A DNA stretch of 64,000 nucleotides from the NCBI RefSeq assembly GCF_018350175.1, contig NC_058368.1, positions 13,082,001 to 13,146,000 of the forward strand, in the 5' to 3' direction. Of the stretch, positions 35,024-35,212 are shown piece after piece. The notes under the pieces were generated by a model. It ran no database searches and was not told the DNA's origin. It worked only from the letters and a program-made list of their open reading frames with translations. Source of the stretch: Felis catus. Taxonomy: Eukaryota. The translations under genes and the position numbers were made by a program. Each line of letters begins with the position of its first letter. The stretch's first letter is position 1.

Positions 35024-35212
35024 TTCATTCCACACCAAGACACAAACAGTTATGAGGATTAACAAGGACACAATAACACAGACAAATGTTCCAGCGCGGC
35101 TGTGGAGACAAAACAGAAAATAAAACAAAGGGCTGGCTGTCCGTAATAGCAGCTGGCCCTCCTCACAGATGAGGACTTCGTCCTCCTGGCGGGGGCAAGG
35201 GACGTCTCCCAA
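35024..35212 (-). other. Open in-frame glyco-Gag-like leader extension (63 codons, TTG start candidate)
   Basis: LGDVPCPRQEDEVLICEEGQLLLRTASPLFYFLFCLHSRAGTFVCVIVSLLILITVCVLVWNE, fused in frame to the Gag ATG, with a hydrophobic signal-anchor-like segment just before MA. Confidence 0.7.
35199..35210 (-). promoter_or_regulatory. GACG-tetraloop packaging (psi) hairpin
   Basis: GGGA-GACG-TCCC, matching the conserved gammaretroviral psi stem-loop. Confidence 0.75.

Follow-up and report, generated by a model that had tools for sequence, protein, structure and literature searches.

Glyco-Gag (gPr80gag) of murine leukaemia virus (MLV) is an in-frame extension upstream of the Gag AUG, and is described in the cited literature as a type II protein with a signal sequence in its leader. 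The MLV leader is reported to have 88 codons and to start at a CUG, which Ahi et al. 2016 place within a GACG-capped stem that is essential for viral RNA; according to Irigoyen et al. 2018, an in-frame GUG located 12 codons upstream of this CUG is used as a start in MLV as well. The substitutions P31A, Y36A, L39A and R63A in MLV are reported in the cited literature to abolish SERINC5 degradation, and the Y36xxL39 motif to be needed for SERINC5 relocation. For glyco-Gag of feline leukaemia virus (FeLV), the cited literature gives an in-frame AUG as the start. Here, a leader of this type is described from the domestic cat, Felis catus, at 35212-35024 on the minus strand of the window, a stretch of 64,000 nucleotides (contig NC_058368.1, positions 13,082,001 to 13,146,000), where it precedes the gag gene of an endogenous gammaretrovirus (gamma-ERV).

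The leader is very probably the decayed N-terminal glyco-Gag extension of an old, frameshifted gamma-ERV that lacks env and is found at seven loci, and the dileucine motif in it is private to the window copy. The original prediction had proposed a glyco-Gag-type leader whose lineage used the dileucine of a segment EEGQLLL as a sorting signal; the former part of this interpretation stood, and the latter did not.

The locus resembles MLV glyco-Gag in having an in-frame extension upstream of the Gag AUG with a candidate non-AUG start codon in a predicted GACG-capped hairpin stem, a predicted cytosolic tail that leads into a signal-anchor adjoining Gag, a basic RSRA-type patch before the membrane segment, and equivalents of L39 and R63. 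It differs in the shorter leader (63 codons), in TTG at the codon homologous to the MLV CUG, in Asp or Glu at the position of Y36, and in the location of an EEG segment after the motif block rather than before it. The leaders of endogenous FeLV-like (enFeLV-like) loci (L019, L047 and L048) gave the best pairwise match, with E-x-x-V-L-I-x-[ED]-E-G and RSRA colinear across one single-residue gap and the same placement of the membrane segment; they differ in an ATG start (MSGASSG...) and Tyr (EYRVLI), the window family having no ATG and Asp (EDEVLI) there. The likeness to the ExxxLL acidic dileucine sorting signals of Nef in HIV-1 (human immunodeficiency virus type 1) and S2 in equine infectious anaemia virus (EIAV) is a pattern match without homology, which concerns EEGQLLL in the window copy and EDEVLI in the family, both in the predicted cytosolic tail. 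In glyco-Gag-negative endogenous MLVs and xenotropic MLV-related virus (XMRV), as reported by Nitta et al. 2012, the leader decays but its start codon and initial conserved residues persist, and the leaders of L004 and L007 are likewise broken, by deletions, in contrast to the five of the seven window-family copies in which the leader is still open and in frame.

The leader open reading frame

Translation of 35212-35024 gave 63 stop-free codons, LGDVPCPRQEDEVLICEEGQLLLRTASPLFYFLFCLHSRAGTFVCVIVSLLILITVCVLVWNE, that begin TTG-GGA-GAC-GTC-CCT and abut the Gag ATG (35023-35021) in frame. Each of the other two frames of the 189-nt leader contains two stops. The frame continues through the matrix (MA) region to a TAG at 34693-34691, giving 173 amino acids counted from the TTG, and in the other direction the stop-to-stop frame (34691..35245) extends 11 codons beyond the TTG up to a TAA at 35248-35246. 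The features of the open reading frame (ORF) are as follows.

35024 to 35212, minus strand: glyco-Gag-type leader ORF, 63 codons (189 nt), from translation, sister copies and homology
35246 to 35248, minus strand: in-frame TAA that sets the upstream limit of an N-terminal extension, 11 codons from the TTG; a stop occupies this codon in 5/7 copies
35144 to 35164, minus strand: EEGQLLL, a double ExxxLL match, in the window copy only
35111 to 35122, minus strand: YFLF, a YxxPhi match adjoining the hydrophobic region, present in the family and not in its closest outside relatives (copy comparison)
35093 to 35104, minus strand: HSRA basic patch (RSRA, RGRA or RGRT in the other copies), aligned with RSRA of enFeLV-like leaders
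35033 to 35089, minus strand: predicted signal-anchor or transmembrane segment TFVCVIVSLLILITVCVLV, with a Kyte-Doolittle 19-residue mean of 3.13
34691 to 34693, minus strand: TAG closing the leader and MA frame after a frame change late in MA, Gag going on in another frame (overlapping ORFs 34368..34790 and 34691..35245)

The hydrophobic 19-mer corresponds to residues 42-60, and its position directly before Gag would confer a type II topology. EEGQLLL (35164-35144), with its two overlapping ExxxLL matches, falls in the predicted cytosolic tail, ~19 residues N-terminal of the membrane segment. A single N-x-S sequon is located at residue 88 of the leader and MA frame. Thus, the original prediction was accurate as regards the 63 codons open from the TTG in frame with Gag, the hydrophobic run just before MA, the double ExxxLL of this copy, and the stop at 34691 after ~173 residues. 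It had also remarked on the lack of Tyr at EEGQLLL; the leader as a whole is not devoid of Tyr, one being present as Y31 within YFLF (residues 31-34; 35122-35111).

Homology to glyco-Gag leaders

Local alignment with the BLOSUM62 matrix paired EDEVLICEEG of the window leader with EYRVLIGDEG of the enFeLV-like leader L047, and SRA with SRA; when a sister copy (L003) was used as the query, RSRA paired with RSRA of L047. The alignment score was 40, as compared with 22.8 +/- 4.4 for shuffled sequences, 10/2000 of which reached 40. The enFeLV-like leader is ATG-initiated and reads ...GEYRVLIGDEGAGPS...WYRSRAARLVILCLV... The Arg equivalent to R63 of MLV is kept as S-R-A (or G-R-A/T) in all five open copies of the family, aligned with the RSRA of L047.

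A phmmer search with the leader and MA against 1.84 billion representatives returned 566 proteins at E <= 1e-3. Among the 150 matches listed, the Gag start is preceded by 35 or more residues in 43, which nearly all have a hydrophobic segment just before it, and several phmmer matches align from query residues 1-11 onward. P0008, which reads MGDIPCPHLEDKVLICEESHLPLQ..., is 47% identical over residues 1-163, and the relatives share an acidic-VLI block, P-S/T-E/D and RSRA at 47-65% identity. The same genome contains gamma-ERV gag copies in the hundreds, with 869 first-look candidates, of which 130 were scored, and an in-frame leader ending in a hydrophobic segment just before MGQ was present in 4/5 of the gamma-ERV groups sampled.

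On these alignments the window ORF is a true homologue of glyco-Gag leaders, and the prediction of such a leader was well founded, given the GACG hairpin, the signal-anchor, the RSRA-type patch and the homology to leaders of enFeLV-like and other gamma-ERVs. It is this homology that makes the ORF more than a product of chance, openness by itself being weak evidence. A scan of IMG/VR with the leader and MA gave 12 pattern matches, none of them confirmed, and a word-index protein search for leader residues 1-63 among longer proteins gave six candidates, none of them scored, which is weak evidence.

An unnamed protein of the raccoon dog (P0003) is 70% identical over query residues 34-157, which span the last part of the leader together with MA, and its upstream leader is apparently read in a shifted frame. 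The occurrence of P0003 in a canid genome indicates that the family or its kin are not confined to felids. FcERV-gamma4, with its 5' leader, is mentioned in a paper of 2024 that deals with FeLV recombinants, and is a candidate identity for the window family.

Sister copies of the provirus

Searches of the same assembly with queries of 501 nt and 251 nt agreed in returning seven loci with 90-92% identity. At five of these, the window copy included, the leader is open, in frame and 189 nt long, whereas it carries a 4-nt deletion in L004 and a 67-nt deletion in L007. TTG is the first leader codon at all seven. Hence, of the features for which conservation across the family was in question, the frame with its TTG was largely retained, and EEGQLL, found in 1/7 copies, was not.

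The copies part at the central Leu of QLLL (Leu22), which is encoded by CTA in the window copy, 6/6 others having Pro (CCA) there. The Gln codon of QLLL (CAG) is CGG (Arg) in four of the six other copies, CAG in one and TGG in one.

35147 to 35149, minus strand: CTA (Leu22), a private substitution for CCA (Pro), from the seven-copy alignment

The family motif is therefore EEG(R/Q)LPL, which has no ExxxLL at the flagged site, and the outside relatives P0008 and P0107 also read LPL. Being present in a single copy, the ExxxLL of EEGQLLL fails as a trait of the lineage, contrary to what had been proposed; on the copy comparison, the dileucine is a private mutation of the window locus. The window copy shows several further private CpG-type transitions and a Gly2 to Glu replacement in Gag, which together make up the usual picture of decay after integration.

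A distant relative, P0105, has EESRLL at the flagged position, with Leu in place of Pro, and EDKVFI in the upstream block. This Leu either arose in parallel or is a polymorphism common to both.

The block homologous to the MLV YxxL motif

Pairwise alignments and a multiple alignment of 20 leaders by MAFFT revealed one conserved block ~12-14 residues before the P-[ST]-[ED] motif. In the window family this block is occupied by the following segment.

35168 to 35185, minus strand: EDEVLI, a match to [DE]xxxL[LI] in the block homologous to EYRVLI and YVVL, in 6/7 copies

The readings of the block are listed below.

Window family: EDEVLI
P0008: EDKVLI
P0107: EDKILI
enFeLV-like leaders: (G)EYRVL(I)
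MLV-like representatives: EGYVVL, EGYVNL
P0024: DYVALI
P0040: EETFFL(I)
P0046: DGELLL
P0135: EINFL(L)
P0143: DETGLI

The remaining family copy, L002, reads EGKALI. The position equivalent to Tyr is occupied by Asp in the pairwise register or by Glu in the register of the multiple alignment, and by Tyr in no family copy. Of the MLV residues reported as needed for SERINC5 degradation, L39 and R63 have equivalents in the family, Y36 has none, and P31 is ambiguous. The EEG of the window leader aligns with GDE or GDG following the YxxL block and not with the residues that precede Tyr. The original prediction had argued from position that YxxL comes after EEG in MLV, and this argument is reversed by the alignments, which put EEG of the family after the homologous block. 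A signal of the dileucine type may have replaced the Tyr signal, but it would be located at EDEVLI (35185-35168), a site to which no attention had been drawn.

The pattern [DE]xxxL[LI] was present in 9/35 representative leader tails, as compared with 1.88 +/- 1.30 in per-sequence shuffles, 0/2000 of which reached nine, and Yxx[LIMFV] was present in 6/35, as compared with 5.9 expected. The 35 tails were drawn from the best 150 of the 566 phmmer matches and are homologous rather than independent. Six of the nine matching tails, eight of which are in the multiple alignment, have the match in the homologous block as read by eye; the matches of P0004 and P0105 lie elsewhere, and EDKILI of P0107 is split by a MAFFT gap. 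Since the leaders are homologous, the enrichment represents conservation of one block and not nine independent events. That EDEVLI served as a functional signal of the dileucine type is, on this evidence, a tentative proposal and somewhat unlikely.

Start codon and RNA hairpin

Two in-frame codons are candidates for initiation, with the start context judged by the rule given in Irigoyen et al. 2018.

35210 to 35212, minus strand: TTG at the glyco-Gag start position, where it opens LGDVP, in 7/7 copies; G is at both -3 and +4
35234 to 35236, minus strand: in-frame CTG with G at both -3 and +4, located eight codons upstream of the TTG and unchanged in 7/7 copies
35199 to 35210, minus strand: GGGA-GACG-UCCC hairpin, a 4-bp stem with a GACG tetraloop that encodes G-D-V-P, in the minimum free energy and centroid structures

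Among near-cognate starts, CUG tends to be the more efficient, and for this reason the CTG at 35236 is at least as likely as the TTG to have been used and probably the stronger of the two.

The fold of 78 nt had z = -2.46, and 3/200 shuffles folded at least as well. The caution attached to the original prediction, that LGDVP may be conserved as part of a packaging hairpin, agrees with this fold and with the MLV stem described by Ahi et al. 2016. The CpG of the GACG tetraloop has decayed in four of the seven copies (L003, L004, L005 and L007), which have GATG twice and GACA twice. The window copy retains GACG, and decay of the CpG elsewhere is as expected of methylated germline DNA.

RNA reads

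Contigs of three metatranscriptomic runs contain parts of the locus, which may be DNA carry-over. The X1 pieces 34989-35095 and 35066-35178 show no differences from the locus, and may likewise derive from DNA. One oligo-dT RNA run, of which ~2% of the raw reads were read, gave ten reads on 34714-35083 in the orientation of sense RNA; seven of these are only 95-99% alike and six fit only partly. The same ~2% of this run gave no reads over 35084-35600, the start codons included.

Structure of the surrounding provirus

The element that carries the leader is a frameshifted gammaretroviral provirus on the minus strand, at about 29162-36063, and has the following parts.

35423 to 36063, minus strand: 5' long terminal repeat (LTR), 641 nt, ending in ...CA, with TATA-like and AATAAA-like strings, from alignment to the 3' LTR
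35403 to 35420, minus strand: primer-binding-site-like 18-mer, read from the sequence, which looks to be of the tRNA-Pro type
35018 to 35023, minus strand: Gag ATG and second codon GAG (Glu), which is Gly in the other six copies
34706 to 35017, minus strand: MA domain (Pfam Gag_MA, E = 3.8e-40, residues 66-169)
33459 to 34367, minus strand: capsid-nucleocapsid (CA-NC) portion of gag (Gag_p30, E = 1e-80; weak zf-CCHC)
29871 to 33269, minus strand: pol remnants, namely reverse transcriptase, RNase H and integrase, over several frames (RVT_1, RNase_H, rve and MLVIN_C domains)
29162 to 29732, minus strand: 3' LTR, 571 nt, from alignment to the 5' LTR

The ORF list and Pfam domains revealed no env between integrase and the 3' LTR. 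The primer-binding-site-like 18-mer begins two bases past the LTR end. The N-terminus of Gag is MEQ in the window copy and MG followed by Q or R in the other six. Gly2 of Gag is the N-myristoylation glycine, and judging from the codon it is lost in the window copy.

The two LTRs differ by 23 mismatches in about 617 aligned bases (3.7%). With a mammalian neutral rate of ~2e-9 per site per year, this divergence suggests a rough age of ~10 million years for the provirus. The 5' LTR exceeds the 3' LTR by 70 nt, the difference being located at 35600-35760 versus 29350-29400, within tandem repeats of ~55-70 nt (caattggccacctgcgtgtggactaacatgactatgcaac...), and one contig of an RNA library omits 55 nt within this region.

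Other gamma-ERV groups in the genome

An abundant gamma-ERV family on many contigs (L015-L039 and L044) has CA 61-65% identical to that of the window provirus and a Gag-start frame that is often open for 530 amino acids. Its leader is in frame, has 49-90 codons with a hydrophobic segment at the end, and includes one to three tandem 30-nt units with GACG (peptide WRDVESPHRF), the number of which varies by locus. In a very uniform family with about 40 near-identical matches (L040, L041 and L049), CA is 52-54% identical and the Gag-start frames are open for 534-558 amino acids; the leader has 65 codons in frame, SEYLAA being found in its tail, and includes a membrane segment. The leaders of L042, L043 and L045 are open and in frame over 51-89 codons, rich in Pro, Ser and Arg, and have no hydrophobic segment before MGQ, unlike glyco-Gag. 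The enFeLV-like loci L019, L047 and L048 have the ATG-initiated leader MSGASSG...EYRVLIGDEG...RSRAARL..., the tail block of which fits both YxxL and [DE]xxxL[LI].

Discussion

If the window leader descends from a glyco-Gag, a minority of ribosomes in the ancestral virus would have started at a non-AUG codon in good context, which may have been the TTG of the GACG hairpin or else the CTG located eight codons upstream. The product would have been a type II membrane protein with a cytosolic tail of ~40 residues, a signal-anchor of 19 residues and a lumenal Gag portion; the tail of the family has EDEVLI at the block where relatives have the Tyr-based YxxL. EEGQLLL arose on the branch of the window copy through replacement of Pro by Leu (CCA to CTA) beside a CpG-type change of Arg to Gln, accompanied by other decay in that copy (Gly2 to Glu, the frame change in MA and a broken pol).

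Several observations weigh against this account. An open frame of this length is not rare, as mononucleotide shuffling of the 189 nt, done 20,000 times, gave a stop-free sequence in 7.3% of cases, and initiation at the TTG or CTG, in any copy or ancestor, is inferred. A scan of 34900-35500 against Rfam at E <= 1 gave no retroviral RNA family, the sole match being a chance-level lncRNA. Among the five open copies, 31/189 leader sites vary, distributed 9/13/9 over the codon positions, and pN/pS is 0.80 for the leader and 0.55 for MA, so that no coding constraint is seen, although a comparison among copies has no power to show it; the differences between copies look neutral. Retention of an open leader in 5/7 copies is about what neutral decay would leave, as gauged from the CA region of these copies, where 302 codons contain 2-7 stops. 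Furthermore, the change of Pro to Leu is placed on a terminal branch, which includes the last evolution before integration, and so may not be strictly post-integration.

Part of this evidence fits a leader conserved solely as RNA, for packaging or dimerisation hairpins, with a frame open by chance and no protein product in the family. The LGDV codons do form the predicted GACG hairpin, the frequency of open shuffles and the lack of codon-position bias are as this explanation expects, and some infectious MLV-related viruses have no glyco-Gag, as reported by Nitta et al. 2012. It is nevertheless improbable, given the in-frame hydrophobic segment that directly precedes the Gag AUG in nearly all 43 leaders of diverged relatives and in 4/5 of the gamma-ERV groups sampled in the genome, together with similarity at the peptide level at 47-65% identity, which RNA constraint alone does not predict. 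At the opposite extreme, the window locus could still be expressed as a membrane-anchored fragment of leader and MA of 173-181 amino acids, co-opted with an effect at the level of the host: the frame stays open from either candidate start as far as the TAG (34693-34691), the 5' LTR retains TATA-like and poly(A)-like strings, and the ten oligo-dT reads have the sense orientation. Yet the start-codon region (35084-35600) is devoid of reads of that run, the RNA contigs may be DNA carry-over, most of the ten reads match imperfectly or in part, no signal of selection is seen, and a non-AUG start would have to be used in an element with a rough age of ~10 million years by the neutral rate above, all of which makes co-option very improbable.

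The two remaining explanations accept a glyco-Gag and concern its sorting signal. An AP-2 signal formed by ExxxLL of EEGQLLL and replacing the MLV YxxL throughout the lineage would account for a double motif that is genuinely present in the predicted cytosolic tail of the window copy, and P0105 has EESRLL at the same site. It is contradicted within the genome itself, where LPL is the reading of 6/6 other copies, and also by the relatives P0008 and P0107, which have LPL too; these copies, at the six other loci, include L004, which has other derived states in common with the window copy, EEG is aligned after and not before the YxxL-homologous block, and the private CpG-type changes with Gly2 to Glu fit post-integration decay, so that hardly any likelihood is left to this proposal. 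An acidic dileucine signal at EDEVLI, taking the place of the MLV- and FeLV-type Tyr signal in the family glyco-Gag, is a better candidate. EDEVLI fits [DE]xxxL[LI] in 6/7 copies, and relatives keep EDKVLI and EDKILI; it aligns with EYRVLI of enFeLV-like and YVVL or YVNL of MLV-like leaders, Asp or Glu replacing Tyr; the pattern is enriched in leader tails; and the equivalents of L39 and R63 are kept alongside. On the other hand, the motif is short, the enrichment among homologous tails may reflect one inherited block rather than repeated selection, and the enFeLV-like leader fits both patterns, such that acidic-x-x-x-L-I may be the mere context of a Tyr signal. YFLF (residues 31-34) could act as a Tyr signal in the family, the stretch overlaps the packaging region and may be conserved by RNA constraint, and the copies show no signal of selection for it. 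We therefore consider a family signal at EDEVLI possible but rather unlikely.

A wider proposal would be that a carnivore gamma-ERV clade lost the Tyr of the glyco-Gag block and relied on an acidic dileucine, E-D-E/K-V/I-L-I, at the homologous site, and that the MLV Y36xxL39 block is of the [DE]xxxL[LI] type in many gammaretroviral lineages, with Tyr as an optional overlay. The members proposed for the Tyr-less clade are the seven-copy family, the raccoon-dog relative, and the relatives reading EDKVLI and EDKILI. This extension is doubtful, and we put it forward as conjecture drawn from alignments. A literature search found no description of a glyco-Gag leader of the dileucine type that lacks the Tyr, although much the greater part of the primary papers was beyond its coverage; two reviews loosely assert a dileucine motif common to Nef, S2 and glycoGag, without a glyco-Gag-specific sequence or experiment in their available text.

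The region is an ordinary ERV fossil, in which a glyco-Gag-type leader is to be expected of a gamma-ERV. The flagged ExxxLL matters little, being a mutation private to one copy of a provirus that is dead. It illustrates that a motif seen in a single ERV copy has to be compared with the sister copies prior to interpretation. In the fossil leaders of many lineages, the block homologous to the MLV YxxL often has no Tyr and yet fits the acidic dileucine pattern. What is gained is a hypothesis on how glyco-Gag tails engage clathrin adaptors and on which residues of the block are truly conserved. If the wider proposal is true, glyco-Gag would converge on the solution of Nef and S2 more closely than is currently described.

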